Below are positions 16,099 through 59,689 of a stretch of DNA of 64,000 nt, piece by piece (position 1 is the stretch's first letter; each line of letters begins with the position of its first letter). The stretch spans positions 1 through 64,000 of the forward strand of contig JYFJ02000982.1 in NCBI GenBank assembly GCA_000934665.2. Direction: 5' to 3'. The position numbers and the translations under genes are program-made. This DNA comes from Catajapyx aquilonaris. Taxonomy: Eukaryota. The notes beneath the pieces are model-generated. The model saw only the letters and a list, made by a program, of their open reading frames with translations. It was not told the origin of the DNA and searched no databases.

Positions 16099-17486
16099 AA
16101 AAATTAATATGGAATGCACTGATGAATGGACAGGGAAAATGACTAACATTTCGTTTTAAAAAGGATTGTCCTGGCAAATGTAACCTGATAAGAAAAAAAA
16201 ATTACCACATTCCTATAAGCTCATCTCTCTTTCACTATGCAGCACCTACCCGGACAAAAATACTGCCAAATGTACTGCTACAAAAAAAAATTAATGTACA
16301 ACTGAACAAATCCTCTGCTTCCTGCATAAAAATTTCATATTAATTACTGGCAAAAGCATATATTTTATATTGCGAACATGGCGACACTTTCACGACCATA
16401 ATACAAAATTTCTAGGAGAATATTTATAGACTAACATGACATTCTCAACAATTTGCAAATCAAGTATTCACACATATACAAACAGATACTAACATTGTGA
16501 ATTTGCTACTTTGCCAGAGCAAACAACATTAATTGACACTTGCTAACAAATCCTTGCATTCACTCTTGACACCTCTTTCCCTGGAATGAGCGTGGCACAA
16601 CACTCTGGCCTCAAATGTATTGTATAGTAAATGCCTGAGGATCCTGTGACCACTGTTGATACTGCGTGTCTGAGGTGGTTATAGGGGCAAAGCACGATAG
16701 AGGCGTTTAAATATTTCAAAGTCATATATAAGTCCTTTCATATTGATATTTCAAACATTGTTGACATCATGATATAACTTATTGCTTAATGAGTACTGGC
16801 AGTTATTGCAGTAATGTTTCCAATTAATACACAAACCAAAATAATGCACCTCCACGTAGTCTCTTCAATTTCCCAATTAATATTGAACAAAAAAATGTGC
16901 AGAAGTGACAAATCTACACCATAGCTGCAGTTCAGAGGTATCTCCAAGCACCTCTATTGCACAGCAGGACGTATCTTACACCCTCTCTCGGAAAGTACTT
17001 CCTACAAAATAAAAGTTACAAAATCAAACTGTAACAAATCAGTTTAAGTACTGTACTTCCATGGATATCACACATTTACTTGTAGCGGGAACATTTTACA
17101 AGACCTGAGATGCACCAAAATTAGAGCGGCCATGAAATGACCTTGAGGTGCAACGGATTGAATTTTAATTATCATCCCTTATATTGGTTCAGATTTTTTC
17201 AAATATTTTTACCGCACAGAATAATTACGCTAGGGAAATACTGACTTGATCATCAGAAAGTAAACATGAAAACCATGCACATTCTGAACCCCCATTTTGC
17301 CCAAAACATAACCGATGGCCCTGTATTTTACGGCTTCTAATAAAATTTATTAGAAGCCGTAAAATACAGGGCCATCGGTTATTTAATAAGCTTCTTGGGA
17401 ACAGTACGTTATAAGATACTGCAAATGTACTGGTTTTTGAGGTTTGCAATACCAGTCCTTGCAGCTCATGCTAACTCCTTTCTCTT

Positions 17487-19091: not shown

Positions 19092-19880
19092 TCTATGACC
19101 TACAATACGGGACACAAGCTGTCAGCCTAGAGTACAGTACAGGACAAATACAGATGCGTACAGAGCTCACTTACATCGCAAATGAACCAGGCCTTACACT
19201 TGCAACCATAAAGAGAGACACGAAAGAAGGAAAGAGTCTTAAGAGTGTCACAAATTTTCATCTACTTTCATGATCATCCGTTGGGGGGCAGCAGGCGGCA
19301 CTGTCTGGAAAATATAATACGTCTATGGGAAAAAATGACTAGTGTGGCCGCACTGTGGCCAATGGTGACAACTAGAAATTCAAAAAGGTTTAAGGCGCCA
19401 GTTTGTACTAAAAATTTAATTAATGTTTATGTGCATTGCACAGAGCATACTTATAGTGGAGAGGTTTGATGGATTCTCTCAGTGTTAGCGTAGGTTTTCT
19501 CGGGGCTCTCCCGTTTCCTCCAACATGCAAAAAAGCACCATAGCATATACGATTCATGATTATTATAAGTGACAGGCATTTACATACGTATAAATACATA
19601 AATTACATAATTTTAAAAGCAGCACAATCAGACTTGCAATGTATTAAACGAAACCATACTTTAAAGATTTAATTATGACCCACTGGATTTTTTTATATTT
19701 ATTTATTTTACAAATATTTCATAACATAAATGAATACACTGCTCTACCAGAAAAGACTTCGCCATCAGAAAATAGGCATCGAGGATTACATGTCGTAATA
19801 ATGAACTCAACACATTATTGACATGTTTGTATATCAAAACCTCTGTGTAATTAACAACAGTTTGTGAATTGCCCATTTAT

Positions 19881-19987
19881 GGCCGGTTTCACCAAGCTCG
19901 GTTCTTTCAGAAAATCCCTATTCTATTTGCAGGGATTTTCTGAAAGAACCGGGGTTTTTATGAAAACCGGGCTTGGTGAAACCGGCC
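19881..19987. mobile_element. ~107-bp MITE-like element
   Basis: Terminal inverted repeats GGCCGGTTTCACCAAGC / GCTTGGTGAAACCGGCC plus internal inverted repeat ggttctttcagaaaatccct / agggattttctgaaagaacc. Confidence 0.7.
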
Positions 19988-20032
19988 ATTAAAAATACTG
20001 CGAATGAAATGATTTCCGAGGTTCATACAACA

Positions 20033-25521: not shown

Positions 25522-26446
25522 ACACTGCAAGATTAAAATTTTGTAAAAACAACACCTGTGGCTGTCAAAAATGTTCATAATAATAAAACAATGAAAGGCT
25601 GGTGATGTCAGAACAACAGTTTATTACCGGTTCTACTCAAAGTTCCATAAATATGATTATATTATTAATAACAATAACATTGGCTCTAAAACGTATCTCC
25701 AAACATTTGAAAGCCAGAAACATCCAAGGATATGTCCAGTCAATAAGTCATGATGAACAGAACAAGCAACGTGAAATTATCGGCAAATAATTTATTATTC
25801 GCACCGAGTTTCCAAAAAAAAAAAAAAAGATTGTGACTCAGGTAATTGTTGCCCTTGATATGACGATCTCCACCTCTCTTCGCATTTCCGAATATGATTA
25901 CGAAATACGTATACTATATATATTTATGCAAAAAAAGTCATGCGAATCAGGAAACCAAGGTCAACTTTGTTGCATGTTAAGGTATATCTGCTTGCACTCT
26001 GCATCTGATAGTTCCTATTGTGCAAGTATTATCGCAGGCTATCTCATATTATCATACATCATGTAAAGTGAAGGAATAATATTGTAGTACTTGTACAGTA
26101 AATTTTTAACCTAATAAAAATCTCTCAAAATTAAATAAAACTAATTCAGGCATATATTGGTTAATGAACTGTCAATTCGCGTCATGTCTACCATTATTGT
26201 GGTGTCATTCAGTCGTCATGCAGAATATGAAGCGTGTCAATTCCTGGTTACATTAAGCCACATTAAGCTATGAAGGAAAAAATAATACCAAACACGGAAC
26301 CATCAAAGTAGATCAAATATTCATGAGGGCAGTTCCAGCAATTCACTCTCACTGTCAGAGGAATTAAGTGCGCATTTCGTTAGACAGCTTCGCATTCAGT
26401 TATTCTTAAGAGAACTGTGACATGTTTTATACTCTCAGTAGCACCA

Positions 26447-28627
26447 ATGGCGTTGAGGATGAAGGTAATTTGTGCAATACTGTGTATAGCAGCCAGTTAC
26501 TCCTGGACAACAGGCAGTGACAAGTTGATAATTCAATCAATTGAAAAAATACTCAGAGAAGTTGGAAGTGACTGCGATTTGGTGATGAATCACGACGTAG
26601 ATGGCCTTCTTCCAAAAGTGATCCTGGATTTTTTGGCCAACATATCAAGACCAGTTGTCATCACTCTCTCAGCATCACTCAGCAACTGGAAATGCACAAG
26701 TTATGTCCGTTCACATGTTAAAATTATTGAAGGAAGTGTCAGGCCTAATTGCGCCACGTACCTGGTGGCCACATGCTCTCAAAATTACGCTCAGATCATG
26801 TCGCAACTGTTGTACGAAGATAACGTGATCAGAAAGACCAAAGATCGGTTCGTGTTTTGGATCAGGGATAGTTCAGACTCCAGCTTCTTACTGGAACATC
26901 CAGCAAACCGGATCAAGTTTAAGATCGCTTTAACCACGCGTTTAAACCAAGTTCAGGCCAGTTCTGCCTGCTTCTTCTGCGATCGCGGAAAACCAGCAGT
27001 TCAGACCCTTCAGGACGGATTGTTTCAGGACATGGCTTCAGACCTGCACGGAATATTCTTGAACAGCGTATTCGAAGAAAGTATGAGCTACGAGCAATGC
27101 GGTCCTTTCTCCTACTTTTACGAAATCTGCTTTCTCGGTCAAGCTCTTAAATTCAGGTGGGAAGTGACCGCCATGAACTTTGCGGATGTCGTCAAAAATG
27201 TGTCAGCCACAGTCGACTTTGTGGACAAGTTTGACAGCGGAGAAATTGCATTTTCGCCTAGAATACCACATATTCCAATAGCATTCCTGGTAAGTTCATG
27301 CAAAGTGTTATAAGGTATAGTCAGGGAGCATATACTACTACATAAGAGGCGCAAACATTCGATTTCCGCGTCTCTCTGTTTGGGGCGTTGCCAAGGCTGG
27401 CGGCCATCTTGAAGTGTGGGGAACGCCAACGAGGTATAAATAGGGTACAGTCAAAAATAGGTGCCGCCATCTTTGATTCGCGCGTGTTCTGCCGTGTAGT
27501 TGCCATAGCCGCCACAACCATCAAAGATGGCGGACCCTATTTTTGCCTGTACCCTATTTATACCTCGTTGGAGTTCCCCACACTTCAAGATAGCCGCCAG
27601 CCTTGAGCCTTGGAAATATATGTAGTATATGTTCCCTGGTAGGTATAGTATGGTATTAAAATATATTGTGACATAACAGGTGTTTGACTACACTTCGGCG
27701 TACGACAACCAGCGAATGACGTTCCTGGTACGTCAACCTCGTGTCACCAACACGACGTTTGTCGCAATCACACCTTACCAGCCTATCCCCTGGTTCGTGT
27801 TCTTCGCCAGCATGTGTTTGTCCAGCCTCTTCATGTCCATTTTGTCAAGTGTGGACGGGACACATCGCTCTGTAACATCATGGCTCCAGTACCTAGCACG
27901 AATATCTATCGAGCAGTGTCCTCGTCCGCCAGAAACGTCGTCAACCCGGATATTCGTCTCAATCTGGTTTTTCTTCTGCATCATAGTCGGTACAGGCTAC
28001 AAGAGCAAGTTGTATAACATAATAGCATTTCCGGATAAAGAAAATGTGCCTCAAAATTTTCTTGAACTGTTCAACTCATCGTTCACAATCCAACTGAGCG
28101 AACTGGTTTACCACTTGGTTGTCTCATACAGTGATTCGGAATTCCTCCTAAATTACAAGGACGTGTTGGCGAAAACGACATCTGTTAAAAACGAGCAGGA
28201 ATGCATGAAAGGCATTATAGATATCGACACAGTCTGTATGAATTCTGAGTATGTGCTGGACACATACGCTCGAAACTTGGATCCGTACGGTACCGGTAAG
28301 ACTGTCATGTCCTCAGACTCATTCATGACCGTGCACAGGTCCATGGTGTTGCCGAAGGACGCGGTGTACACTGACAACTTTGACTTTTGGATCCAAGTTT
28401 GTGTCAGCATTGGGTTGAAATCCAGACATGACAGTCTGATGATGCATTTGCATGGTCTGGAAGCGGCTAAAGCGAGAAGAGACAACGGATTTCAAGAGAA
28501 GAATGGGCCGTGTCCATTCTCATTGGCTCGTCTAATAGGGTCATTCGCAATTATTTTGGCTGGATACGCCCTGGCATTTGTACAATTTTTGCGTGAAATT
28601 TGCAACATTATTACAATACATTGCTAA
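26447..28627 (+). CDS. Divergent ionotropic receptor (IR, iGluR-related chemoreceptor), ~596 aa
   Basis: Exons 26447-27289 and 27680-28627 (phase 0). Signal peptide; FDYTSAY..TFLVRQP; TM1 PYQPIPW..; SSTRIFVSIWFFFCIIVGTGYKSKL..FP; final TM PFSLARLIGSFAIILAGYALAFVQFLRE; AATAAA overlaps the stop. Confidence 0.88.
27322..27638. mobile_element. Fold-back MITE (family M1) in the IR intron
   Basis: Ends CAGGGAGCATATACTAC / GTAGTATATGTTCCCTG; ~85-bp internal inverted arms; direct repeat AGGTATAGT at 27313-27321 and 27641-27649; second copy at 59007. Confidence 0.85.
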
Positions 28628-36268: not shown

Positions 36269-38502
36269 ATGCCCGTGGACTTTTACTTCGCACCTGCCAG
36301 TGCCCCTTGTCGGGCGGTCATGCTGACCGCAAAGGCCCTCGGGGTCGAGCTCAACAAGAAGATGGTCAACCTCACGGCCGGAGAGCACATGAAGCCCGAG
36401 TTCCTTAAGGTACATCACTATATTATGTCGGGTTTACAGCCCATTCGCCGAATCAATTAGGAAACAGTACCCGCGGCTTTCTGACCCTTTGTATCGTGGT
36501 TTTGTGTGGGTTTTAAGTGGGGGAAGTGACTAGGGACACCGGAATTAATTCCTCAAGCTAGATCAGAATGCAGACAGGATCATTGTCATGATGATTGCTG
36601 CAGTTCCCAAAGGGCTATTCCATCCTATATAATCACCTCAAAATCCGTCCCGAATTGAATCCACGAAGACCCGGTAAAAAAATGTATTTTGTTGCCAACC
36701 ACCAGAAATTTCAATTTCGGTAAGTTGGCGTCGTTGGAGTGATTCGGCCTGAGATATATAGCAATCAGTCACCTTCGGTCTGGTTCAGCTTCTGGAATTC
36801 ATACCGAGATTCCTAGTCACTTCTCCCACTTTAAACCCACAGAAAACCACGATGCAAAGGGTTGTCAGCAAGCCTCATGTACTCTTTCCTAATAATTGAT
36901 TCGGCGTCTGGCCTGTAAACCCGACTTCAGCCAATCTAAAGATCTTGTCACAATCCAGATGAACCCTCAACACTGCATCCCAACCATTGTAGACGACAAA
37001 TTCACTCTTTGGGAAAGGTGAGTTTGTTCGGTTTACATATGCTGTGGTCACTCCTTGTATTATCTTGACCATTCCAGTCGTGCAATACAGGTGTATCTGG
37101 CCACCAAATACGGAAGTGACGACACCTTGTACCCAAACGACGCCATGAAACGCGCCTTGGTCCAGCAGCGTCTCAACTTCGATTTGGGAACACTGTTCCA
37201 TAGCTTCAGAGCAGCATACGTGAGTTGGGAATTACAATAATGATGATGTGATAGTTACGCTGACTATTTCCGGACAGTTAGCAATTGCAACTATGATGAT
37301 GTGATTGTTACGCTGACCATTTCCGGACAGCACCCGATGATGTTCATGGGAATCGAGAAGGTGGACCCGCTGAAGCTGTCCAAAATAAAGGAGGTCATGT
37401 ACCTCCTGGACGGGTTTCTGTCCCAGTCCAAGTGGGCCGCAGGGGACAACATAACCGTCGCTGACCACAGTCTGGTGGCCAGCATCAGCCAGTTAGAGGC
37501 CACCGGGTACGACCTGTCCCCATTCAAGAACGTGACCCAGTGGTACAAGCAGTGCCTGAACGACATGCCAGGATTCAAGGAGGCCATGCAAGGAGCCACC
37601 ATATTCAAAAGACTGTTTGAGAAGATGGTGGCCAGGACACCCAAAATACTTAAAATGCCCGTGGACTTTTACTTCGCACCACCCAGTGCCCCTTGTCGCG
37701 CGGTCATGCTGACCGCAAAGGCCCTCGGTGTCGAGCTCAACAAGAAGATGGTCAACCTCATGGCCGGAGAGCACATGAAGCCCGAGTTCCTTAAGGTACG
37801 CCATTCGTCACTATTGCACCTAAACCTTAGACACAAGCATTTATCATTCTAATGATCCTGTCATAATCCAGATCAACCCTCAACACTGCATCCCAACCAT
37901 TGTAGACGACAAATTCACTCTTTGGGAAAGGTGAGCTTGTTCTGTTACATGCTGTGGTCACTCCTTGTATTATCTTGACCATTCCAGCCGTGCAATCCAG
38001 GTGTATCTGGCCACCAAATACGGAGGTAACGACACTTTGTATCCAAACGACGCCATGAAACGCGCCTTGGTCCAACAGCGTCTCAACTTCGATTTGGGAA
38101 CACTGTACCAGTGCTTCATGGAGGCATACGTGAGTTAGAAATTACAACAATGATGATGTGATAGTTGCGTTGACCATTTCCGGACAGTACCCGCCGATGT
38201 TCATGGGAGTCGAAAAGGTGGACCCTCAGAAGCTGTCCAAAATAACGGAGGCCATGGACCTCCTGGACGGGTTTCTGTCCCTGTCCAAGTGGGCCGCAGG
38301 GGACAACATAACCGTCGCTGACCACAGTCTGGTGGCCACCATCAGCCAGTTAATAGCCGCCGGGTACGACCTGTCCCCATTCAATAACGTGACCAAGTGG
38401 TTCAAGCAGTGCCATAACGACATGCCCGGATTCAAGGAGGTCATGCAAGGAGCCGCCATGTTCAAAGGAATGGCTGATAAGATGTTGGCCGGGAAATTCT
38501 AG
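36269..38502 (+). CDS. Tandem double-GST fusion gene (units 6+7), ~440 aa
   Basis: Exons 36269-36409, 36959-37017, 37078-37219, 37331-37795, 37872-37930, 37988-38129, 38188-38502 (1323 nt). The fourth exon reads ..[20 protein letters not shown].. with no stop; the second ATG at 37655 is in frame. Confidence 0.8.
36427..36925. mobile_element. ~500-bp MITE with long imperfect TIRs in intron 1 of GST unit 6
   Basis: GTCGGGTTTACAGCCCATTCGCCGAATCAATTAGGAAA.. / ..TTTCCTAATAATTGATTCGGCGTCTGGCCTGTAAACCCGAC; inverted similarity extends ~125 bp; absent from the homologous introns of units 5 and 7. Confidence 0.85.
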
Positions 38503-38790: not shown

Positions 38791-41700
38791 ATGGCGAGGA
38801 TTTTGGTTGGAAGTCTCGCTCTCTTCCTTCTCTTGTGTTTGTTAGAAGTCCATGTTACATCAGGAAGTTATAGGAAATCGTACCTGAAGAAGTATCACAT
38901 CGTTTCCAGTCGCGTGAAGGTAAGAGTGGTCGAGTGATACTTGGCTACACCTGACCAGTGGGAACAAAAGGTTCAAACCTGTGTCTGTACCTGCCCTTTC
39001 CAGATTCCCAGGATAAGACGGGTGTCCTTAGAAGACAGTTCTGACTCCATATTCGATGATCACCCTGACTACTGCATTTATCTCCGGATAAAGAACATCC
39101 CTCCTGGACTCGACATTTGCCTCCGTATCCGTCAAAGAAGCGACATGAACTTGACCTTCATGTCTACCGACGGCAGTAATCTCGTCGAGATACCGGACAA
39201 CATCCGAGGAGCCATGGTGTACGGACATGCCAACCAGGACAGACTCAACTCATTTGTGTCCGGGTACATTCACAACGGCCAGTTCTTCGGGGAGATCACC
39301 TTTAGAGGCCGGATCTTCGCAGTGGAAGAGCTCTGGTCGCACGACGAGACCATAAGGAACAGCGGTGGTAGTCCTTTCCCGACGTTGTCCAACAGGAAGA
39401 GCGTACTGTATGAGCTCGTGGACTTCATGACTGACTCAGGACAGCTAACGCTTCGAAGACAGAAGCTCGGAGACGTCATGACTGACCCAGGACAGGTAAG
39501 GCTTCGAAGACAGAAGCGCAGTGTGTCCAAGAAGGCTGAACGGTACAGGCCTTACGGAAGGTCCTACGACTTGGAGGACCAGTCCCACCTATTCAAAACG
39601 AACAGGATCTTCCACCCTCTCAGGTAAGACTCGACATTTCCGAGTAACCTAGAGATGATTTTTTTTACAAGCCACCCGAGTGCGCACCCACATTCGCGCA
39701 GCTCTGTTGTCCAGACAACAACGTTGCCAGAATTACTCGTATCTGCCGATTCTTTTCAGGCAGTACGAGGTGGTGTGCAGACTGGCTATACTAGCGGACC
39801 ACTTCTTCTTCAAGAATATGGCTAACGAGGATAGCCTTCTGGCGTTTCTGAAGCTGGTGAGCTTCGCCGAGAGAGTGCGGTACATTTTCAGCCACATCAA
39901 CTACGACCCCGGAAACCCAAATCCTGGCACCAGATCGGACGAGATTCGCTACAGGATAAAAGACGTGAGTTGCTCATTATAGGTTCAGTACTTCAACCAT
40001 CAGGTTCCCTAAGCTGAAGCATATTGCGAAACCCTTTCCCACAGTTTGTCGTGTTCGAGAAAGAGGACGTGGAGGGATATCCCATTACCAGCAGCACCCT
40101 CCACCTAGACATAGCCGAACGATACGTGTCCACCATGAGCAAAGGCTTAAACCTACAGGAATTCTGCATAGGAATAGTGATTTCGGGACACAACTTCACT
40201 GGGGATCCAGGCAAGTACACATTACAAGTCTTGACTCACGTCTTATAAATCCGTCGCACCACGAACCATATGAGAAAAGGGAGGCCATCACCTTTGAAAT
40301 TTTATCTACAATTATGCCACTGGTTTATTGTGCCTTTATACCGATGGTGACTCGTTTGGTTCGGACTTGACCAATTGATGACTTTTTCTGAACTGTGCAG
40401 CGACCGTGAACTTCTGTTTCAGGCAAGGCTTTTGAACCCGATCCCGATCGAGAGCTCGGAGGTCTGTGCGAGTCAAGCATTTCGATCGACGGAGAAACAT
40501 GGAGCAGGAACATCCTGGCAGTGTCGGCCGCAGCTTCTGGAGGGACGAGTGCACTTCCCAGCAGGAAGGCCAGCACTCTCATCGCCTACTACATGGCGAG
40601 GGCCATGGGGGCCAAAGACGACGACTCATCCTGCGATCCTCCAGGTATATATGCCAAGTGCACATAACACATCTGCGGTATGTACATAATAATGTTGGCC
40701 CGCGGTTTCCTTTCCAGATTCGGAGAAAAACGGTTACTACTTGATGCACAGCCACGACCAGGACGGCTCAAAGAAGAACCACTGGCTGCTGTCACAGTGC
40801 AGCAAAATGCAGATCAAGGTCATCTTGGACAAGCAGGCAAACTGCTTCACAATCGGCGACACCTCATATTGCGGGAACGGTACTTGCTTGTATCGTCTAC
40901 AGACAGAACGGATGTAATGCTATGTTCTTAACAGGCATAATCGAGAATGGCGAGGAGTGCGACTGCGGTACGGAGCACGTTACCTTTGGCTGCGAGGCGC
41001 ACGACGGATGCTGCCACCTGCCCATGTCGAAGGACGCGTGCAAAGTCGTGTAAGTTGCGTGACGTCATGCAAATGCGACTATTTTCTTCCTGCAACATTT
41101 AGTTGGACCGTGTGTCGTTTTGGATATTGCTGTTGTGATGCATACCCGGCATTTTACAGCACCGCGAAGCCATGCGAGAACGATGCGTGGCCCTGCGTCA
41201 TGTGCAACAAGACGGGCTGGCCCAAGTGCCAGTCCCACGAGAGGCCCTGCGATAAAGGCGAGGTCCCATGCTTACCAAGGTCCATCTACTGTCTCAACCA
41301 GACGAACCAGCCGGAGCCCTGCTGGTGCCTGTCCGACGAGACTCCCTGCTGCAACGAGACCAAACTGACCATGTGCAAGTCGAGGCCCTGCCGGTTCAAC
41401 GAGGTCCCCTGCAAGTCCCGGAAGCCGGGGCTTCCGTGCAAGATGGACGAATACCCTTGCATCCCTTGTGGCAAGCCAAAGCAGCCTCCCTGCAACCAGA
41501 CGTTGTGCAACGATAACTGCAATAGCTCCACTGATTGCAGGCTGTGCAGACCAGAGGAAGAGCCGTGCCGGTTGTTGAGGGGGTGTGGTGAATATGAGAT
41601 GCCTTGCTCGTACAACTGCACAGGAGTGGAGAACAGCGTTGAGTGCAGGGAATGCGAGGTTGGGGAAGAACCGTGCTTCCCCAAGCGTAGGAATTGCGCA

Positions 41701-44254
41701 TTCTATGAGGTCCCCTGCATCGAGTGCATCGTTTTTGACGGCATCAGGGAATGCCCGTTTATATCGGAGGCGATGCGGTGCGAGGAGGGAAAACCACAAC
41801 AAAACCAAAAACACTGCTTTCGGCAGTGCGAGGAGGGTGAAGAACCCTGCCTAGAGATTCAAAACTGCTTCAAGTTGACGAACGATAGCAGGCCGGGCAC
41901 CAAGCTGTATGATAGCTGCGCGGAGTGCGGGACCCATGGGCGGCCAGCTTGCACCGAGTGCAAACAGCCGTGCAAAGCCGACCAGCGAAATTGCTTGGAG
42001 ACGGTCTCCTGTCCCTCCTTCGTCACACGCTTCCGTGATTTTGTACCCCTCTGGTGCTTGGAGGTCGAGCCCTGCATCGGTTCGAACAGGCCCTGCCACC
42101 CCTGCGGCACCGAGTATTTCCCGGCCTGCGATAAGGTCCGGCTGCCGTGCAAGTTCTTCCAGCCCTCGTGCAATCTGTCGATCAAGTGCGTGCCAGGACA
42201 GGCGCCCTGCTGTCCACACCAAGGTAGGTAGGATAATTAACTTGCCACACACCCACGTCACATTAGACCTCGTGCTTGCAAAATTTCTTTCTGCAGCTAA
42301 GGATGAGCACTGCCTGCAGCAGAATTACAGGAGATGCAACAGAAGCGAGGCTACCTGCTTGTATGAGACGGAGTGCACAGTCGGACAGGAGCCTTGCAGA
42401 GAGTGCGGCGGTCCCTATCAGATGTCCTGCGAATACGGCCGTTGCAAGAGCGAATGCTTGTGCGGATCCCGATCGCCTTACAAAAGTTGCCGCGAGTACG
42501 AAAACGTCCAAGCATGCCTGACAGTGTGCGAGATGCACACCGAGTTGTGTAACGCCACGTGCCGTGAGCGAGACCCCTTCATGGCCGAGATATGTCAGGA
42601 GGACTGCCAAGACAACATGGACCTGTGCAACTACACGTGCCAACACCAGCTAGATCTCTGCGACAAGGTGTGCAAAGACTGCCTCGAGAAGTGCGAGTTC
42701 TGCAAAAATAATTTCTGCGACGCCGAAACACTTCCGTGCATCAGGGCCAATTGCACGAAAGGACAGGTGCCGTGCACCCCTTGCGGAGGACCCGAGGAGT
42801 GCCGCAAGGTGATGAACCCGTGCAGAGGCGAGGGTTCGTGCGTCGACAAGGCCCGGCCATGCGATGAGGGAGACGTCCCATGCAGGCTGGATTCGTGCGG
42901 ACCTGCCGCCAACACCTGCAGGCAGTGCGAGACAAATGAGACTCCGTGCTTCTTCCCAACCCGTACCTGCACGCAGGACGAGATTCAGTGCGTCCCTCGG
43001 CACTTGCCTCTCACCTGCGACGACCGCAAGTGCGATGACGACGAGACTCCCTGCAAGGCTCCGGTTCCTTGCGAGTACGGCGAGATGCCCTGCCAGCCCT
43101 GCGTCGACGACAATTGCACCGATCTCGAGCGTCCCTGCAAGTTGGGCCAGCTTCCGTGCGTCAAAGGGCGTCCCTGTTTGGCCAAGGAGTTGCCGTGCAC
43201 CCCGTGCGGAGAGTATGGCCAGCCCAAGTGCTACGACGTGACGAAACCATGCGGTCTCTTCGAGGTGCCTTGCAGGCTTCCAAAGGTGTGCGGGGTGGAC
43301 GAAACACCGTGCGAGCCGCCCAACTGCACCGATCTGCCTTGCCTCAGATGGCGGTGGTGCGAGCTGTGGGAAAGGCAGTGCGTGCAGTGCGGCCGGGAAG
43401 GACAGCCCCCGTGCGACCTGTTGTCCTGCAAGGACACGTGCAAGACGGACAGTTGCAGGCAGACGTGTGAGATGTGCCACACCTGCGACGCGGACGAGGT
43501 ACCTTGCCGCCCGAGGTTGCCTTGTGACTCCAGCGAGTGCAGGCGTCCGGACCCTGATCCTGCCTGCAAGTTTTGCGAGAGGATAGTGTGGAGGTGCCGT
43601 AGGGGGCAGAAGCCGTGCTCGGAGGACCCAGACTGCATAGAGGATGGCAATCCGGCGTGCAAAGGAGCCGAGCCGTGCAATCAGGCAAGCAAACCCTGCG
43701 CTGTTCCCAGGGCGTGCAAAGAAGGCGAGACATCCTGCGTGCTGTGTGGCATCTCAGGTCGGCCCCCGTGCACCAACTGCAGCGAGAGGATCTGCGACAT
43801 AGGCGAGATGCCGTGCAGCAGGCCGCAGATGTGCACGTACGACAAGCCCTGCGTCATGTGCGAGAAGCCAGGCTACGAGAACGTGCCGTGCTCCAGCGTC
43901 GTGCCGCCCAACCGCCCGTGCATGGACAGCGAGCTGCCGTGCGTGGAGCAGATGATATGCGACCACTTCGAAGAGAGGCCATGCGTCCCATGTGGCTGGA
44001 TAGGGACGCCCGAGTGCGAATCGATACAGGTTCCGTATCGGCCGTGCGGTATGCTCGAGATTCCTTGCCGAGCCAGGTGCACTCCGAGCGAGCTGGCTAA
44101 CCAGACGATTCTGCCTTGGAACTACGTGGAGATGATGAGGCCCAAGAGGAGGACCCAGTACGAGAAAGCGGCGGCTCATCGCGCGGAGGGGCTGCGGATT
44201 GGATTGGTTTTGATTGGGATGTTTGTCGCGTTTCGTCGACTGCTTGGGCAATGA
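38791..44254 (+). CDS. ADAM17/ADAM10-like pseudo-metalloprotease with long Cys-rich repeat extension (~1,546 aa)
   Basis: Nine phase-consistent exons: 38791-38919, 39004-39623, 39760-39964, 40045-40210, 40423-40644, 40718-40879, 40935-41049, 41160-42223, 42297-44254. Signal peptide, prodomain ending RQKR, CRLAILADHFFF, Met-turn GYYLM, SQCSK, CGNGIIENGEECDCG, hydrophobic C-terminus. Confidence 0.82.
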
Positions 44255-44537
44255 TTGGAGACAGATGGTTCAGTTGATTTGGAGGATTCTCAGTGAAGTA
44301 TAGGTTATGTTGAGACTGAGCAATAAAGACAGCGGTATTACGATCTTGTGTGTTTGAAAATACTATTTATCCGCTCAAATGTAGCCTACAGTGCTGGACG
44401 TTAATGGTGTCGTACTGGTGGCGCTGACGGCAAAAGAGCTCATTCATCACTTAGGTTCGCTCTTTTGTCGCCAGAGACTTGGGCGCCACCAGTATGAGAG
44501 TATGGCCCCCAGCCCCCCCAGCACTGTACTCCACATA

Positions 44538-47117: not shown

Positions 47118-48529
47118 ATGGATCAACTGTCAATTTGGGTTATTATTGTCTTGGCTGGTGCCGCCGTCTTAGCTGAAGGTATGGTTCACTATTTTGCTGA
47201 TTAACTCCTTATCCATTTAATTATAGCATTTTGCATTATTTTAAAACTCTTCAAGTGACCCCCCTAGTCAGGTTATTTTTCAAGTTAATATACAAAGTTC
47301 TGCACTAGTTCAGAGATAAACAGCGTGCATCCTTACAATAAAGCATGTTTATTATTATTTTTTAAATTACCCAGGTTCGTCAAATTCAAGCGAGCAGTGC
47401 CTGACAGAACAGGGTGACGTGAAAGAAGGTTGTGCGGCCATCTTGGTTCCATGGAAATCGACCTTCATGTTTGCTTGCCCAGGTTAGTGTTAAATCCGAT
47501 TTTATGTCTGGCTCCATGAGGTAACTTACTCAGGTAGTTAACCCAAACTTGATTCGAATAGTTCTGCAGTTCAATTCTTAATTTTTATTATAATTTTTCC
47601 CCCTCATTACGCGTATGTAGGCGAGGATGACAATTACACAATGGAAGATTGCTCCCATAAAACATACCCGATGTGCAATTTACCAGAATGCAGTGATGAT
47701 GCATTTAAGAAAGATTTGGACAACGTGGAGAGAGGCTCATTTGCTGTGCATGCCATCCACGAATGTCGATCCAGCCTCTGCGTTTCTCATCCTGGTAAAT
47801 ACCGCTCTTATAATCAGTCAATTATCTGATTATTTTTTCTCAGATTATTGCAGGAACGTCGAGTGTCGTCCCCCACCATACAATCGTACCGAATGCAAGG
47901 AATTAAATCAACACAAGTGCTGCTCCGACTATGTGTGTGGGAATTACAGACGACGTCATGAGAGTGAGTTTTGCATTAATATGTGGGTCATATGTAACAT
48001 TTAGATCGGTATACTGCTCATGTAAGAAATTAATTATTTTTGACGATTTTTGTTCGCTACAGCAACACGAGTAAAGAGAAGCAGCAATCTCGCTCCATTT
48101 CACACAAGTTGTTGAAGTAAACAATCCTATCTTCTATTGTTGGACCTTTCAGATGATCCAACATGTGATGGAAGATTGTATTGTTCGCCGGAGGCATTAA
48201 TTTACATGGATTCGATAAATTCGAAGCTGAATCCAGATGGATCACCTTGCGTGGTCTTTCTAGACGAGTACAACTGCGATGCTCCAGTTCACATGTGCAA
48301 AAGTACAAAATGCGATTATTTATTCCCCCTTTTTTAACGCTGATGATATTTTATGACAATTTCAGGCGATGAAAAACCCGGCCGTTGCCCCACAATAAAT
48401 GAAATTGATCAAGACATCGGCTTACTTCGGTCCTGTGTGGGAGACTACACCTGTCCCTCTGAGCAGAAGTGTTGCAAGTATTACATTTCTGCCATGTCGG
48501 GGTCATGCTTGGACCCTGTCAGCGACTAG
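47118..48529 (+). CDS. Secreted Cys-rich protein with VWC-like and 6-Cys WAP-like domains, copy 1 (~258 aa)
   Basis: Exons 47118-47178, 47375-47482, 47621-47794, 47844-47963, 48153-48302, 48366-48529, all introns phase 1. Signal peptide MDQLSIWVIIVLAGAAVLA; last exon KPGRCP..CVGDYTCPSEQKCC..SCLDP. Confidence 0.8.
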
Positions 48530-49340
48530 CATTGTTATTACAAGTGCTGTTGTGGAAAATAACAAAGATATCCGTCGCCTATTTCTATTGTGCACAGGCC
48601 TTATGTTTTCATCATTTGTAATTGTGTATTAAGCACTCGGAATTGAAGCTTCACAATCAAAAGATGACAGTTTTAATCAGCCCTCTCCCAAAGTTACAGT
48701 CGTTGTGCGCAAGTGACAAACGAGGAAAATAAAACTAAAAATCAACATTTTACGGTATGAAAATTAAAAGTAACTACGTTAAATATGAAATACCAAATAA
48801 ATAAATGAAATAAATTATTCAGAAAATAAATGGCATAATTATATGATAAAAATAAGATGACACGTATAAAAATAGAGTATTTCTTCTTATAAAAGGCTCT
48901 TTGTTTGTTTGTCCAGGTTTGATGGTTATCACATGGCAGCCCGTTATCATATATTGCTAGGAACTCACAGGTAAACCGGACATTATACATTTTGGGGTTC
49001 AAACCCAGTTCAAACCGAACAATTTCATCCATGCATTATTCAAAGTACGAGCATATTTTTGTGGGTAAATAGCGAGTTGTGTCCATTTTTCGGGGGTTAC
49101 TCTGAGTATACCCAGTGTCGGTGTAGGTTATTCACCGCACTATACTTTGCGTCATTCCGGAATTATTACTCACAACAACAATCATTTCTCTGCAAGTCAT
49201 TCGCATTGGTTCTGCGGAATGACACGCATACGGAAATACTCGTGTATTTAACCTGCAACGGTGTACTCCATGCATAATTTACTAGCTAGAGTTCATAAAT
49301 TTTATCAGTTGTAGCCGGTTGTAGCCCACTGCGTCACCAG

Positions 49341-51526
49341 ATGGAGAAGCTACCACTGCTGATTCTTATGGCAACGCTGATCATCTCAGCTCATGGTGAG
49401 ATGTCTTTACATATTATTATTAAACAGGATTGCGCACTACACAAGTCCATGAGCTGCAAGAGGGGAGGAAAGTGACAATATATATTTGAAGGGTTTATTC
49501 CGGTAATCAGTTTAAAAAGGTGAAACAGTCACGACAGGCGACATTTTTAAAAACATATGGTTTCTTCTTTCCAAACTGGTTGCTAGGAAAAACATTTCAT
49601 TCCTTCCCCGTTGTGCTTCCATTAATTGTTGAACCTCTGGACTTGGACCAATATTTAAATACCTATTATTATTTAAATGAGACCGTATTTGCATCCCTCG
49701 ATGCCAAGAGAGAGATAAAAACTGCAACATGAAATACATTACGATATGTAGTTGTAAAAAGGGTGAAATATAGTTCAATTATACAAGCCACGTTCGCAAG
49801 AAAATCTTATTACTATTCGTGTGAGCGCTTGCTGCAATGTTTCATCTTACATTTTTCACACCTTTTTGCGTAGTTCATTTTTGATATGTTTTTGCTCTAA
49901 AACTTCTCTTTGCCGCTTAGAATCCTGTGATATACACTTGGGATTGTTAAATCATGACACACATGTTCAGTCAGGTTGAAAAATCATATTTGTTTAATAT
50001 TTTCTTGCTGCTGCAGGGTCCTTTAATTCAAGCCCAGCGATTTGCCTGACAGAAACTGGAGATCTGACAATGGGCTGTGTTGCTATGCAAGTCCCCTGGA
50101 AATCGACCTTTATGTATCTGTGTCCAGGTTAGTATATCGACAAACTACAGGACCTATACACCGTAAAATAGAGGCAAAATAATTTGAATTTTGACTCCAG
50201 GAAAGGAAGACAATAATTACGAGAAGAAGGATTGCACATGCATTGTTGAGACGCCTGATGCGAAAGGACCCTACAGTTGCAAAAGGGAAGAATGTGCATA
50301 CAATGTCATTCATTCAGATCTGTCTAATGTCGTGGAAACTGGGATATTAGCAGTCCACTCGCTCGACAAACGGTGGAGGACAAATCTTTGCCTTTCGGAC
50401 CCTGGTATGTGCACTGTAAGTTTACCAATAAAAGTGACAGGAATTTTCATGCGTTATTCTCATGCAGATTACTGCAAGCACGTCCCATGCAGGCCACCAC
50501 CTTACAATATGACCGAGTGCAAGGAGATTAGAGGAAAGCCGTGCTGCTCCGATTACGTGTGTGGACGTCAGGAACACAGTAATGAGAGTGAGCTAGTCAT
50601 TATATCGGACCGAAGCAGGTTGGCATAGTGGATAAGGCGTCCGACTGCTAATCGGGAGGTCCTGGGTTCGAATCCCGGGGCCGGCAACCTTGACCGTGGT
50701 TTTCTGTGGTTTTCCACGGTCTTTCTAGGATAATTCCGGGGTCGCTTCCGTATAATAGGCCACAGCCGCTTCCTTCCTTCCCTATCCTTGGAGGTTGAAT
50801 GGCAAATGCTGGGCCAACCTCCTTAAATATCAATTAAAAGTCAGTCATTATATTGGAAGGAACCCTGTGGATGTGTGAACCTTCAGACATATACCCTGTA
50901 TAATACGTACTCTAACTGTATGTGCTGTCAAAAAAGTTTCGCCAAAGCTTATTCTGGCATTACGACATTCGACCTAAGTGAAGTTGACAGAAAAACGACA
51001 ACAAATGTATTATTATCTGATGCATAGCGCCGAATTTCATTTGGACATAGACATGAGCAGTATATGTCTACTTTAATATCTATCACCTACAGTATAATGC
51101 AAACGTGGCACATGTTGTTTGTTTGACCAATTTCCAGGTGTCTCGCACTGTGTCCACACAAGGTGTTCCGGAGTGGCTTTAATGGCTCTTTACTCGGAAT
51201 ATCCAAGACGGAATCCAGATGGATCTCCCTGCTCAGCCTTCATAGATGTTTACAACTGTCATGATAGTCTAGTTATCACATGCAAAGGTGATGTCTATGC
51301 TACATGCATTTAGTGTCTTGGACAGTACTCTGCTAATATGTTGCAATATCACATTTCAGAGAAAGAAAAATCTGGACGTTGTCCGACTGCCAATGAGATG
51401 GACGTGAACATCGATACTGGCTTTGCTCGTCTCTGTGTGGGAGACTACACCTGCCCGGATGACCAAAAATGTTGCACCTTTGACCCCTCAGGCGAAGGGC
51501 TATGCATGGAGCCTGTCACAGACTGA
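49341..51526 (+). CDS. Secreted Cys-rich VWC-like/WAP-like protein, copy 2
   Basis: Six exons homologous to copy 1: MEKLPLLILMATLIISAH | CLTETGD..VPWKSTFMYLCP | .. | CRPPPYNMTEC..CCSDYVC | NPDGSPC | KSGRCP..CVGDYTCPDDQKCC..CMEPVTD*. Confidence 0.8.
50608..50842 (+). mobile_element. tRNA-derived SINE (family A) in intron 4 of Cys-rich copy 2
   Basis: A box TGGCATAGTGG, ctGCTaa, B box GGTTCGAATCC; flanking repeat AGTCATTATAT(C/T)GGA at 50595-50609 and 50843-50857. Confidence 0.88.
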
Positions 51527-52851
51527 AATTATTTTAACGTCTGGTGGAATTGAAGCGATATTACTTTGTTGCAGTAATGTTCGGGCGAAAGTTGCCCGAC
51601 GTATGAAGGAAGACAAGGGAACACAGAAAGTACATAAAAAGCGCCTGTAACTGCAGTTTTAGTAAAATAAACAATATTGTTTCATAGACACGCTTGTCTG
51701 AATTTTATTTAGATAATTGCGGATTTAGTACACTTATAGTCCACAGTTACCCTTACCACCCGAATTTAGATCAGGTGACCAGGTCTGTGAAAGAAAACGG
51801 AATCCAGAGGAATCTTGTCCGTATAACGGATTTTTTATTTTCTTCTATTTGTGAAGCCAAATGCACCTGTACGATGTATTTTTGTCCCACAATATCGACA
51901 TCAACGTAGTGGGTTTTAAATGTTTTCCTGTTCAGCATTACCATGTTTTTGTATTAAATTTTCTAATGGTAAGCTTTTAAGGGAAGATACAGTCGGCACA
52001 GACAGGGATAGTAATATTTCTATATTAACAGTTCAGAGTACCTTCACGGAGATATCGGTTATAACAAATTTAAAAAAAAAATATGCCACAATAAGAGTTA
52101 ATGACCTGAAGACACGCATAAATTTGCATTGGTAGATATCCGTTCTCAGACGAACATTATAGCGGAAGTGCACATTAAATACGTACATTTTCTTGTTTTG
52201 ATAAAGTAAAATGAAGTATATTATGAGGCAAATATGATGGGAACTAAAACATCGTAAGCGTGAAAATAATGGGGATGAGTAAAATAAGCGACGTAAATAA
52301 AAATTAGAATTAGAATTGCAGTGCGTACAAGCATCGGTTGGAGTTAACATGAATGATACAATCGTTTTATCTTGCGTTTTATAATGTTGTTAAATAGATT
52401 GGTCTATTATAGAGGGCTTTGACTTTTAAACAGTCAAATTATAATCATCAGCATGTACGTGCTCATCTTGCCGGAGTTTCTTTGACCACCTTGTTTTGAT
52501 AGTTTTGATTATAGTTACATAATTCCGGAATATACTCACAATAACAAGCCATTCTTCGGAAGTCATTCGCATTAGATCATACTGAATTATTATATGACTA
52601 GCATGCTACAATAGTACAACCTAGGGGAGGCGCGGACAATACATACTCAACGCCACAGTGTATTTGAAAGGTCATTCTCTGAGTAATAATTACAGCTTGT
52701 TTTGAAACGCGAATATTGTTTGTTTCTTACGATACAGTATGTTCCGGACTCGTCATATTCTAAGCAGCGTCATTGCATGTCACACCACTGATTTCAATAA
52801 TTACGCGTTAATGTGCCCATGTTGCTAGTGAGTAGAGTTCTAATGTCCAGC

Positions 52852-54244
52852 ATGGCTCAAGGCAAGGCTGCAGCTGTAGCTGTGGCCTTATTTCTGTTGG
52901 TCATCATTGTAGTACCCTCCCAAGGTATGAACTTCTCGAGTGCCTCATGTATATAGTGTAAAAATAAGTTCGAAGAAACGTATAGTTCTGTAATCTTAAC
53001 AAGACGGAGATTAGAGGAAGAAAACTCTCTACCTTATTATAGTGCTGATGGTTGCACACAACCAGAATACGTTTATCTGAACAGTGAATTAATATGAATA
53101 TTATACTGCAACACGCTCTTAATTTCAGTCGTTTCGTCCAATTCGAGCAGCCTGTGCCTGCAAGAGAGTGGCAACCTTAAAGATGGCTGCATCGCCATTC
53201 AAGTCTCATGGAAGTCTTCAATCGCATACCTTTGTCCTGGTAAGATTCACTTTTCGTTACTGATGTTAAGCAAGCCTATGGGATCATTAGTCGCAGGCCT
53301 GTCTCGGATTAGATATTTGGCGTTACAAATCAGTGTTTTGAATATTGCGTCTTATTACCAGAGTGTACAGTGAGAACAGTTTGGCCTAATCAATAACTCA
53401 ATGGCATTGCTTGATTGCAGGCAGTGAAGAGGAGCGGTACAAGATGAGAGATTGCGCAATTCCAACAATACCCGAAAATCACCCTAGAGGAGCATTTGCT
53501 GTTTACACGGCTTGGGGATGCGGACAAGGGATTTGCAAGTCAAAAAGTTCAGGTTGTGACAAGCTTCTCGCACAATGACATTAACTGTGAGTGTACTGGG
53601 ACTCAAATTTTTTTCCAGCTGCTGTGTACCGTGAGCCGTGGATTACAACAGAGAAATGTAGGCCTGCCCCATACAATCGGACAGAATGCACCGAAATAAA
53701 GGATGAGCCATCGAATTATTCAAGTCCTCGTTGTACACGATATTGGTGTGGAAATGGAGGTGAGGCTAAGAAATGTTCAGTCACTGGTACTGTTTAAGAT
53801 GTGATTTTTTTGACACAGATATATCCGACTGCAGACCAAAAGGTGTTCATAAAGTAGAACATGGTTATGCAATCTACTTCCATGAATTAAAAGAGCATAA
53901 TTTACCTGCCCCTCCCAAGAATCCCGATGGCAGCAACTGTGTCACTTTTAAAGACTCATATAGCTGCGACAGTGCTGTTCATATGTGCAAAGGTACTTGT
54001 ACATCGTATTTAACCAGCCATTAAGCAAAAAATGGTGGCGTGCTAAATGCACAATGACTGCATTTCAGATCAAGAGAAACCAGGACGTTGCCACCTTCCG
54101 AGCGAGTTGGATATCAACAACTTCAGTGTAGATGGGCTGCGTCTGTGCGTTGGTGACTTTTCGTGTCCTGGAAGACAAAAATGCTGCAAACATCGCCCTG
54201 GATTCACAGAGGGTTACTGCATGGAACCTTACAACGGGGTGTAA
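52852..54244 (+). CDS. Secreted Cys-rich VWC-like/WAP-like protein, copy 3 (most divergent)
   Basis: Six exons: MAQGKAAAVAVALFLLVIIVVPSQ | CLQESGNLKDGCIAIQVSWKS..LCP | .. | CRPAPYNRTEC | NPDGSNC | KPGRCH..CVGDFSCPGRQKCC..CMEPYNGV*. Confidence 0.78.
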
Positions 54245-55022
54245 AATGTTTATACTAAATTTTGTGTCGAATACTGTAGTTGTTACTACTCGTAATATTT
54301 TGAGTATTACCACAATGCCTTTTATGTAATAAGTCTGCCTGTATTTTTAATAAACATTATGCAGGCAGATTTAATAAAACTACATTATTACTGATACGTA
54401 GGCTGTAACGCTATAGCATGTGGCCACATAAATGCGGTAGAATTGTCCCATAATCGTAATAATTTATTATGTAAACAATTCTCGAAAGTTTGACATAGAT
54501 GGAAATAAACACTGATACAAAATATATTATTTCATTTTTACTCCCACAATTATGCTATCATTTAAATACACACAGTTTACGTTTGGAATGAATGAATTAC
54601 GAGTATTATTTCAATTGATGTATTCGCAAAGACATTATGTCTTGCGTATATCAGTGAAAAAATGTTACAGCCAATTAACCGCTGATAACGAGGGCACAGT
54701 GTACTGCACACAAAATAATTATTTGCAAATTAATTTTGGGTTTGAAAAGCAAGGACGAATCGTCCTGCCAATATTGAAGCAGTTATTTCACCCATCCAAT
54801 ATTGACGGAGGTTGTTCACCGCACTTCTTTGCGTCATTCCCGGAATCATTACGCACATCAACAATCATTATTCTCCGCAAGTCATTCACACTGCTGGATC
54901 CCGAGGAACGAAACGCCCATACGGAAATACTCGTGTATTTAGCCTTGCAACGCTGCACTCGACGGGTAATTTACAAGCTAGAGTTCATCATTAAACACAG
55001 TTGGAGCCCACTGTGTCAAGAG

Positions 55023-56356
55023 ATGGAGAAACTACTACTGCTGATTTCAATGACGCTGATCATCTCAACTCATGGTGAGGTGACTATACATGCACATCTT
55101 CAGTCAATCGAAAAAAGGAGGACCTATCGGTACTTAATGTAATTTTTTTTTCAAATTTTTTCAAATTTTTCAAGATTTTTTTCAAATTCAAGCCCAGCAG
55201 TGATGTGCCTTACAGAAACTGGAGATATCACAATGGGCTGTGTTGCTATCCAAGTCCCCTGGAAATCGACCTTCATGTATCTCTGCCCAGGTAATTATTA
55301 TTGGCAGCCTGTATCAAAAACCAGCGGCAAGAAATTGTGTCAAAATTTTCACTCCAGGGAAGGAAGACAATTACACGATGAATGGTTGTGGGTCAAAGGT
55401 CGATACTCCTCGGAAACGCCAGCGCTACAGGTGCTGCAGAGATAGAGAATGCGAATACAGGAGGTTCAGCCTCTATGCGAACATGTCGGAAGTATCAGTG
55501 GAAAGGGGAAAATTAGCTGTGTACAAACTGGACGAGAGGTGCCGACCAAGATTATGCGCTTCGGAACCTGGTATAAGTTGGTAAATGTTAACAAGGGACA
55601 GCAGTTATTTTCCGGCGTTATTCTCTTGCAGATTACTGTCAACACGTCTCGTGTCGGCCGCCGCCTTACAATCGCACCGAGTGCATGGAGATTAAAGGAA
55701 ATTCGTGCTGCTCCAAATACGAGTGTGGACATCATAGTAATGAGAGTGAGTTAGGTTTATCATTACATCGTAAGGAACTTGGGTCCTAAAAGAGGTGTGA
55801 ACCCTGAGACACCCTGTAAACGTAATATGAACAATGCAGTCGCCTTTAGCGGAGAAGTGTTTGACAAATACAGTACAATATGCATCTATCACTATAAAGA
55901 TTACTGCGAATGAAAATGTAACATGTTTTTTTAAATCACTTTCCAGGTGACACACATTGTGTTCATCGTTTCGGTTGTTTTGGTAGCCTGCATTTTATGT
56001 ACATTTACTCGAAATATCCCAGACGGAATCCAGATGGATCTCCCTGCCAAGTCTTCATAGATGATTACAACTGCAATGATCTAGTTACCATGTGCAAAGG
56101 TGATGTATATAGTATATAGGCTGCGTGCTTTTAGTGTCTTGGATTGTTATCTGCTAATATGCCATAACTTCCTATTTCAGAGGAGGAAAAACCCGGACGT
56201 TGTCCGACTGCCAATGAGATGGACGTGAACATCGACACTGACTTTGCTCGTCTCTGCGTGGGAGACTACACCTGCCCGGATGACCAAAAATGCTGCACCT
56301 TTTACCCCTCACTGTCCTCAGGCAAGGGGTTCTGCGTGGAGCCTGTCACAGACTGA
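55023..56356 (+). CDS. Secreted Cys-rich VWC-like/WAP-like protein, copy 4
   Basis: Close paralog of copy 2, including the upstream region. The exon 2 acceptor is ambiguous: in frame only at the CAGCAG at 55195-55200. Ends KPGRCP..CVGDYTCPDDQKCC..CVEPVTD*. Confidence 0.72.
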
Positions 56357-59006: not shown

Positions 59007-59362
59007 GGAGCATATACTACATAAGAGGCGCAAACATTCGATTTCCGCGTCTTTCTGTTTAGGGCGTCGCCAAGGCTGGCGGCCATCCTGAAGTGTGTGG
59101 AACGCCAACGAGGTATAAATAGGGTACAGGCAAAAATAGGGTCCCCCATCTTTGATTCGCGCGTGTTATTGCCGTGTAGTTGCCATGGCCGCCAAACCCA
59201 TCAAAGATGGCGGACCCTATTTTTGCCTGTACCCTATTTATACCTCGTTAGCGTTCCCCACACTTCAAGATGGCCGCCAGCCTTGGCAACGGTCCCAAAC
59301 AGAGAGACGCGAACATCAAAGGCGCCGACAGAAGTTTGCGCCTCTTATGTAGTATGTGCTCC
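59007..59362. mobile_element. Fold-back MITE (family M1), second copy
   Basis: GGAGCATATACTACATAAGAGGCGCAAAC / GTTTGCGCCTCTTATGTAGTATGTGCTCC; nearly the whole element is palindromic; homologous to 27322-27638. Confidence 0.88.
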
Positions 59363-59689
59363 TTGCTGTAGAACAAAAAGTTTTTAAATATTTTTTTCTC
59401 CGTCTAATCATAAGTCACAATGTTCTTGTTGAATCAATTTGTTTAACTTGTATGTGTTAATTAGAATACTGTATATGTTACAGTGTGCAATGAATTTTGC
59501 AACACTGCAATATTCGCAAAACAGCACCTTATCATCCATAGGCAGGTATATATAAAAAATAGCTCAAGGTTGTCCTTGAAACGCCGCGCGCATGTTACAG
59601 CCTGCATGGCAGTCCATGCTCGACTCTTGCACTGAAAGGAAGTGTGCAGTCTATACCAACGACACTTATTGTACCAGAAGCTTCTAGCA

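Follow-up and report, generated by a model that had tools for sequence, protein, structure and literature searches.

A putative protease-dead ADAM10/17-like head on a cysteine-repeat stalk in Catajapyx aquilonaris

The stretch analyzed here, hereafter the window, comprises 64,000 nucleotides (nt) of Catajapyx aquilonaris contig JYFJ02000982.1 (assembly GCA_000934665.2). It carries an ADAM-like gene whose genomic sequence model has nine exons and 1,546 open codons (38791-44254, plus strand, as are all of its exons). We propose that the product is a non-catalytic cell-surface binding protein, anchored by glycosylphosphatidylinositol (GPI), in which a dead ADAM head is carried on a disulfide-beaded stalk and serves in adhesion, recognition or as a decoy. 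We assign this reading, which is drawn from sequence, a probability of about 0.58. The stalked dead-ADAM architecture is known from one genome.

The head retains the scaffold of an ADAM10/17-type protease. A profile of exon 6 (40718-40879; profile A2, eight paralogs), where the metalloprotease-like domain has its Met-turn and final helix, matches ADAM10 (E 4.9e-8) and ADAM17 (E 4.5e-7) in the PDB, and its Met is invariant in 8/8 rows and aligned to the ADAM10 Met. The profile of exon 5 (40423-40644; A1, ten paralogs), whose alignment runs through the motif of the pseudo-active site, has only three PDB matches, all ADAM10, at E 0.3. At the ADAM10 positions His, Glu, His and His, window exon 5 has Y, Y, R and D, which replaces all three zinc ligands and the catalytic Glu. 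The HExxHxxGxxH zinc motif is likewise missing from 10/10 heads of the dead clade. The replacements differ from paralog to paralog while helix-packing residues are invariant, a pattern that fits a scaffold retained without metal. The window head is thus predicted to be a catalytically dead ADAM10/17-like domain, unable to bind zinc. The original prediction, which concerned the repeat array behind the head, did not state that the site is dead. In a wide protein search the A2 dead-head profile found one of 650 candidates, an ordinary ADAM10, and the frame of the paralog C528, taken with its in-frame introns, gave no ADAM match in the PDB.

Behind the head, the disintegrin domain is cut short. 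Its only Pfam trace, carried by exon 7 (40935-41049), covers positions 1-25 of the 75 of PF00200 (E 0.05), and the sequence leaves the disintegrin pattern at the Cys that stands before S-P-x-Q in Kuzbanian-like genes. Exons 8 and 9 give 0 Pfam families at E<=1, including the cysteine-rich and membrane-proximal domains (PF21299, PF16698). The claim that only the start of the disintegrin remains is borne out by the PF00200 trace, and the claim that repeats replace most of that domain and the whole membrane-proximal region is supported.

The stalk is encoded by exon 8 (41160-42223), which adds one more disintegrin Cys and then about 350 amino acids (aa) of Cys repeats by its open frame and paralog alignment, and by exon 9 (42297-44254). 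Each is open in a single frame, with canonical AG/GT ends and phases that agree. The repeat part (aa 540-1546) holds 155 Cys and 109 Pro in 1,007 residues, about 950 of which form the Cys-rich stalk. The motif C-x3-[EQD]-x-P-C occurs 27 times (shuffle mean 0.47, maximum 5 in 2,000 shuffles), in agreement with the "over 25 copies" announced at the outset. A second motif, C-x2-C-G-x2-G-[QR]-P-x-C, had been put at about ten copies; its strict form was counted four times, the looser C-x2-C-G-x4-P-x-C seven times (shuffle mean 0.02) and C-x2-C-G nine times. Nor are these two interleaved repeats, as had been thought. Instead, they are linked parts of one 6-Cys unit of about 38-42 aa, C-x6-C-x5-C-x6-C-x2-C-x7-C: in the window gene, as in three paralogous ones, a pair of C-x6-C segments separated by five residues leads directly into x2-C-G-x2-G-x-P-x-C. 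The commonest series of Cys gaps are 5-6-2-7 and 6-5-6-2. The strict unit occurs 9 times in the window and 39 times over the ten frames examined, against about 0.01-0.02 per shuffled frame. Its consensus over 34 units is R-x-C-x3-E-x-P-C-x5-C-x3-E-x-P-C-x2-C-G-x-P-G-x-P-x-C, and the six Cys are invariant in 34/34 units, which were chosen by that very pattern. AlphaFold models a single 38-residue unit with a mean pLDDT (per-residue confidence) of 82.9, a pTM (whole-model confidence) of 0.32 and no regular secondary structure.

Eight strict units lie in the repeat part of exon 9 (42297-44086), along with extra C-x6-C half units and a block of another kind (42431-42730). In this block C-x3-C pairs stand 11 residues apart, and 14 Cys are invariant in 5/5 aligned copies; it is probably a disulfide-stapled helical hairpin, judging by its spacing, and has no match in Pfam or the PDB. 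Tandem Repeats Finder reported nothing inside 41160-44190 and the direct-repeat DNA families within the array are degenerate, so the array repeats at the protein level. One paralogous stalk, that of C1325 (L014, about 7530-7660, plus strand), contains a recent 7-residue C-x2-N-S-V-E/V tandem repeat.

The gene has many relatives in its own genome, where exons 8, 9 and 5 have at least 5, 14 and 10 matches, respectively. Because several pairs, at 95-98% identity, may be allelic, we count five to seven stalk genes; C2226, which has a repeat exon, was examined over its last 6.6 kb and contig C11027 was left out. Further relatives are dead and lack the stalk. In the two C528 genes and in C382, the last exons or open frames are 62-77 aa long and run from one disintegrin Cys into a GPI-like tail (the splice acceptor of C528b was not mapped). 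Searches of the genome with PF00200 and PF13688 brought in more ADAM10-like genes. In C5793a the zinc motif is intact and the disintegrin runs on. C7651 (L027, 1625-2557, minus strand) and C5262 (L033, 4490-5335, plus strand) combine an intact zinc motif with a truncated disintegrin and a hydrophobic GPI-like end, and are candidate GPI-anchored active ADAMs. The tandem ADAM10-like genes C4771a and C4771b (L031, 3373-3882 and 6709-7461, minus strand) keep two His, the third being lost together with the catalytic Glu.

In a 27-row tree, seven heads of the repeat clade group together (support 99/96) inside ten dead heads (100/100). These in turn are nested in a group (98/94) made up of 16 ADAM10-like rows from this genome and separate from rows that we label Kuz-, Kul-, TACE- and Meltrin-like, the first three labels having been assigned from sequence and tree. 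One of the seven, C4455, is on a contig that ends before any repeat exon; rows shorter than 110 aa (C1070, C3534, C1553, C712) were left out. The seven- and ten-row groups persist in a 23-row tree from which four long or short rows were dropped. The tree is rooted at the midpoint and its backbone among the active forms is weakly resolved; the one evolutionary step it supports is that the stalk arose once, among dead heads. Since sister genes lack a stalk, the array appears to be an expansion inside the last exon or exons.

The repeats are under purifying selection. The ratio of nonsynonymous to synonymous substitution rates (dN/dS) is 0.21-0.55 for repeat exons, in pairs with unsaturated dS, and 0.08-0.49 for head exons. 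In exon 8, 51 of 52 aligned Cys are kept in four paralogous exons at 44-45% identity, and in exon 9, 90 of 97 are kept against C1804 at 48% identity. Such dN/dS values and Cys retention indicate that the gene is not a decaying pseudogene. Elsewhere in the genome, C6074 (L026, 5871-6092, minus strand) is a broken fragment of the exon 9 end, with a stop and shifted frames.

These data bear on whether the protein could instead be shed or secreted structural material, such as an egg, spermatophore, cuticle or gland coat, joined by inter-chain disulfides, with the head serving for folding, targeting or docking. A composition of 15% Cys and 11% Pro, 17 N-glycosylation sequons (3.1 expected), several arrays of 1,000-1,350 aa in one genome and low-order repeats inside one paralog would all suit a coat. 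We nevertheless regard it as unlikely, given that all tails examined keep a GPI-like end, that Cys positions are fixed among paralogs as in intra-chain modules, and that the stalk-less paralogs retain the same head and tail.

The repeat was described beforehand as a possibly undescribed disulfide-rich element, and our searches support this for a unit whose disulfides would follow from its Cys pattern. No relative was recovered from Pfam, the PDB, 1.84 billion protein representatives or metagenomes, collections that, for proteins and metagenomes, may simply lack this lineage. Specifically, phmmer with exon 9 returned 0 of those representatives at E<=0.001, and the unit profile A4 returned 0 of 1,721 candidates at E<=0.01 from a word-indexed set of 5.8 billion, a weak search. 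The best Atlas value was 0.76, to an unnamed cluster, with no usable match for the C-x3-C block, and metagenome scans confirmed 0/62 and 0/154 pattern matches. Pfam searches with 34 units gave ten scattered families, each in two members at most and all below the cut-off; the PDB sequence search with the repeat gave E about 2 or worse only, and fold searches with the 38-residue model, which is probably too small for scoring, were blank. Domains go unrecognized in half of secreted cysteine-rich repeat proteins, as summarized in PMC9885460, so an unknown Cys repeat is not by itself rare.

A faint likeness to LDL-A repeats (PF00057) had also been remarked on. It holds for the overall size, about 40 aa with six Cys, and for the spacing of Cys 1-4, and goes no further. 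An alignment of same-genome LDL-A units gives C-x6-C-x4/5-C-x6-C-x5-C-x8-C; the window unit has gaps of 6-5-6-2-7, with two residues between Cys4 and Cys5 where LDL-A has five, and its consensus has neither the conserved Phe nor the acidic calcium cage. The missing acidic end was correctly noted, as D-x-S-D-E occurs 0 times in the repeat part. We rejected membership of LDL-A on an HHalign probability of 6.7% over 22 columns that span the first four Cys, and of VWC, whose pattern is C-x2-C-x-C and CC-x2-C, on a probability of 0.65% over 8 columns, no better than the 0.93% of an LDL-A/VWC control.

Conceivably, the repeats carry the main function, as a multivalent cluster that binds ligands in the way LDL-A clusters do in lipoprotein receptors, and the dead head is secondary. 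The six Cys in about 40 aa, the alignment of the first four with same-genome LDL-A units (E 0.0054, against 0.059 for the LDL-A/VWC control), a Glu in fifth place in 21 of 36 C-x5-P-C segments and the purifying selection on the repeats would be in keeping with such a role. The low HHalign probability, the missing D-x-S-D-E, Phe and Asp residues and the higher conservation of heads than of repeats make it quite unlikely.

The protein ends in a Cys-free segment (44087-44254, stop codon included) that resembles a GPI signal: in our rule-based scan, three small residues 28 aa from the end precede a short spacer and then a hydrophobic tail. The best 11-residue Kyte-Doolittle mean is 2.79 and the best 19-residue mean 1.63, for a hydrophobic core of about 12 residues. 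The hydrophobic stretch stops 7 residues before the stop codon, which agrees with the short tail and near absence of a cytoplasmic part described earlier; there is no transmembrane helix with cytosolic tail as in ADAM10/17. A small-residue triplet 19-36 residues from the end, followed by a hydrophobic end and then no more than 13 residues, was found in 12/12 family tails, and an omega-like site in 0/3 outside proteins (P0001, P0009, P0010). The rule was set by hand after the account of such signals in PMC4136848 (a small residue as omega site, then a polar spacer and a hydrophobic C-terminus, with no cytosolic tail). By sequence, the tail looks like a GPI signal across the whole family rather than a transmembrane helix. 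Outside the family, the beetle ADAM10-like protein P0009, with its full disintegrin, also has a hydrophobic tail end and no cytosolic part.

The same architecture could end in a minimal transmembrane helix, which would make the product a type I membrane protein without a signaling tail. Two Arg follow the hydrophobic stretch in the window, and 19-residue hydropathy reaches 2.0-2.6 in 4/12 family tails. We consider this very unlikely with a window core of about 12 residues, 19-residue means of 0.8-1.8 in the other eight tails, and several family tails that stop within 1-5 residues of the hydrophobic stretch.

Whether the repeat exons are part of the ADAM gene turns on the junction 41049>41160. 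Exon 7 ends in phase 2, with a GT donor at 41050, and exon 8 opens in phase 2. Among open-frame candidates, the most pyrimidine-rich acceptor gives the same join in 6/6 genes (window, C1804, C3688, C2534 and both C1325 genes), and the join has the same phase in 5/5 repeat-bearing paralogs tested. In all six genes it sets the next Cys seven residues past the last Cys of exon 7 (C-x7-C), a spacing identical to that in the Kuzbanian-like disintegrin of C5157 from the same genome, where that Cys precedes S-P-S-Q. The exon 8-9 intron is in phase 1 in C1804 as in the window, although about 27 kb long in C1804, and each C1325 gene has one repeat exon of about 1,290-1,350 codons. Head and repeats occur in the same order and strand on one contig in six loci, and exon 8 opens at a splice acceptor without a start codon or signal peptide. 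There is no AATAAA between start and stop codons; the one at 44322-44327, 68 nt past the stop, is alone in following it closely between the start codon and the region upstream of the next gene. The junction that had been singled out for confirmation thus holds at the genomic level as the top-ranked, shared phase-2 join, and the conserved order of head and repeats points to a single gene.

It is highly improbable that exons 8 and 9 form a gene of their own, or act as a metal sponge akin to metallothionein, with no tie to the ADAM exons: the junction is known from genomic DNA alone and the CxxC motifs match zinc fingers weakly (PDB E about 2; Pfam best E 0.009, in 1/34 members), but the start of exon 8, the six loci and the lack of an internal AATAAA speak against a separate gene, and the low number of His (12 in 1,007 aa), the many sequons and the tail of secretory type speak against a sponge. 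Metal binding, offered at the outset along with a surface stalk or a matrix, has little support, and the surface stalk is the best reading.

Several observations weigh against our proposal of a GPI-anchored dead head on a beaded stalk. The GPI call comes from a rule set by hand, and a loose one, rather than from a trained predictor; the two terminal Arg also fit a very short transmembrane end. Strict units make up 30% of the array and all C-x6-C segments 55%, which leaves the bead model incomplete and shows the array to be irregular. The single-unit model, with its low pTM, gives no disulfide list, and a 162-residue multi-unit model was unusable (pLDDT 39.9). Stalk exons are 44-55% identical to paralogs at near-saturated dS, above what a passive spacer might need. 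In the short paralog C382, the favored acceptor ranked second of the two shown.

We propose a model for a protein of the secretory route, in which the prodomain is probably cut off at its furin-like site and the ADAM10/17-like domain keeps its scaffold and Met-turn. As a head unable to bind zinc, and by analogy with vertebrate pseudo-ADAMs, it would bind rather than cut. Half a disintegrin would then lead into a chain of small modules locked by putative disulfides, namely the 6-Cys unit, the C-x6-C half unit and one C-x3-C block, with many N-glycan sites, and the C-terminal signal would be exchanged for a GPI anchor, as the anatomy of the tail suggests. The chain most likely acts as a protease-resistant spacer that keeps the dead head tens of nanometers off the membrane, and may add weak multivalent binding. 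Small disulfide modules span 2-3 nm per 40-residue stretch; at that rate the stalk could reach some 50-70 nm. Because vertebrate pseudo-ADAMs bind in sperm function and at synapses, according to the main text of PMC11266112, adhesion, recognition or decoy activity is our leading guess.

The origin of the gene would lie within this lineage: an ADAM10-like gene may have expanded, lost its C-terminal half and its catalysis in one order or the other, and in one subclade grown a stalk in the last exon. In a broader context, forms that appear active, half-dead, dead and short, and dead and long coexist in one genome. It is tempting to speculate, and we do so tentatively, that in this lineage an ADAM10-like sheddase gave rise to recognition proteins that are GPI-anchored and have no catalysis, and that the length of the stalk, made of a disulfide module of new fold and ranging from none at all to about 1,300 residues, determines how far they reach. 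Dead forms may then be decoys or adhesion partners for the targets of active ones.

The remaining exons complete the model. Exon 1 (38791-38919) has the start codon and a putative hydrophobic signal peptide (19-residue hydropathy 1.65-2.46 in windows from aa 1-9). Exon 2 (39004-39623) is prodomain-like; it resembles the equivalent paralog exons, has no match in Pfam, and carries a multibasic furin-like site near aa 209-215, part of which is doubled by a 51-nt tandem duplication (39413-39517). The metalloprotease-like domain begins in exon 3 (39760-39964), 61-65% identical to exons of the second C1325 gene, C3688 and C4455, and continues in exon 4 (40045-40210). Introns are GT-AG throughout save the fourth (40211-40422), which is GC-AG and whose donor gives a phase that suits exon 5. 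GC at third codon positions is 0.68 over exons 1-7 and 0.76 over the two repeat exons.

The gene sits between two of eleven glutathione transferase genes that surround it (25183-62665, plus strand; tblastn, one C-terminal exon), of which the flanking two are presumably of a delta-like class. Taken with two Kuzbanian-type genes, this cluster is a gene content that points to an arthropod. No glutathione transferase matches were found in the stretches examined around the ADAM-like paralogs, so the window gene may have moved into the cluster. At 37247-37852 (plus strand) the last exon of one transferase gene runs stop-free into the first exon of the next, by fusion, deletion between tandem copies or an assembly join. 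Downstream, small Cys-rich genes, two or three of them, lie at 47500-55600 (plus strand), with exons for WAP domains (48347-48526, E 1.5e-8; 51314-51523, E 2.7e-7) and similar upstream exons at 47621, 50188 and 55204. Labeled by eye, tandem open reading frame copies at 7574-21429 (minus strand) are of F-box plus leucine-rich-repeat type, and two long frames at 26384-28624 (plus strand) resemble an ionotropic chemoreceptor, split by a palindromic element (27322-27605). The latter is one copy of a 280-360-nt interspersed element like a miniature inverted-repeat transposable element, found also at 59007-59365 and in C1325 near 33.8, 42.7 and 44.6-45.3 kb; copies match their own reverse complement at about 78-84% and one another at 84-93%.

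Among known systems, ADAM10/Kuzbanian and ADAM17/TACE are closest in metalloprotease-domain sequence, Met-turn and disintegrin start. The hydrophobic N-terminus and multibasic site of the window protein also recall their signal peptide and prodomain. Unlike them, it lacks the zinc ligands, the catalytic Glu, the cysteine-rich/membrane-proximal domain and the transmembrane helix with cytosolic tail, its disintegrin is cut after the first part, and it adds a repeat stalk. Genes that appear Kuz-, Kul- and TACE-like are also present elsewhere in this genome. The best database matches to the active members of the expansion are invertebrate ADAM10-like proteins (Strigamia T1J3M3, Mya, Cryptolaemus; P0001, P0002, P0009), which keep HExxH, a full disintegrin and the cysteine-rich region and have no repeat array.

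According to the main text of PMC11266112, ADAMs cross the membrane once and have a cytosolic tail as well as disintegrin, cysteine-rich and EGF regions. The same text describes pseudopeptidase ADAMs (ADAM2, 7, 11, 18, 22, 23, 29 and 32, and C. elegans UNC-71) that have lost the zinc-binding and general-base residues, keep the Met-turn and work through binding in sperm function, in axon guidance and at synapses; the words GPI, arthropod and invertebrate occur in it 0 times each. The window family differs in standing on the ADAM10/17 side and in lacking most of the disintegrin that pseudopeptidase ADAMs often use. Our searches of the open-licence literature brought up no title or abstract that describes a GPI-type or repeat-stalk ADAM. 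By design alone, the Tetrahymena Ser immobilization antigens offer an analogy, with a signal peptide, periodic Cys blocks (six Cys per block in SerL), a GPI signal and a multigene family; as presented in PMC4136848, their blocks are 55-100 aa long and they have no enzyme-derived head, and the phmmer search with exon 9 gave no match to them or to any other protein.

The analysis newly describes the 6-Cys unit, the block of C-x3-C pairs, relatives of the stalk-less and of the active kind, and the tree. The graded forms of one gene in one genome allow direct comparison of the change from enzyme to binder and of the purpose of stalk length, and the 38-residue unit, small and with many natural variants, could become a new disulfide scaffold. 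Known dead ADAMs are single-pass proteins that rely on the disintegrin or on surface loops, and a dead ADAM10/17-type head on a GPI-type stalk would depart from them.

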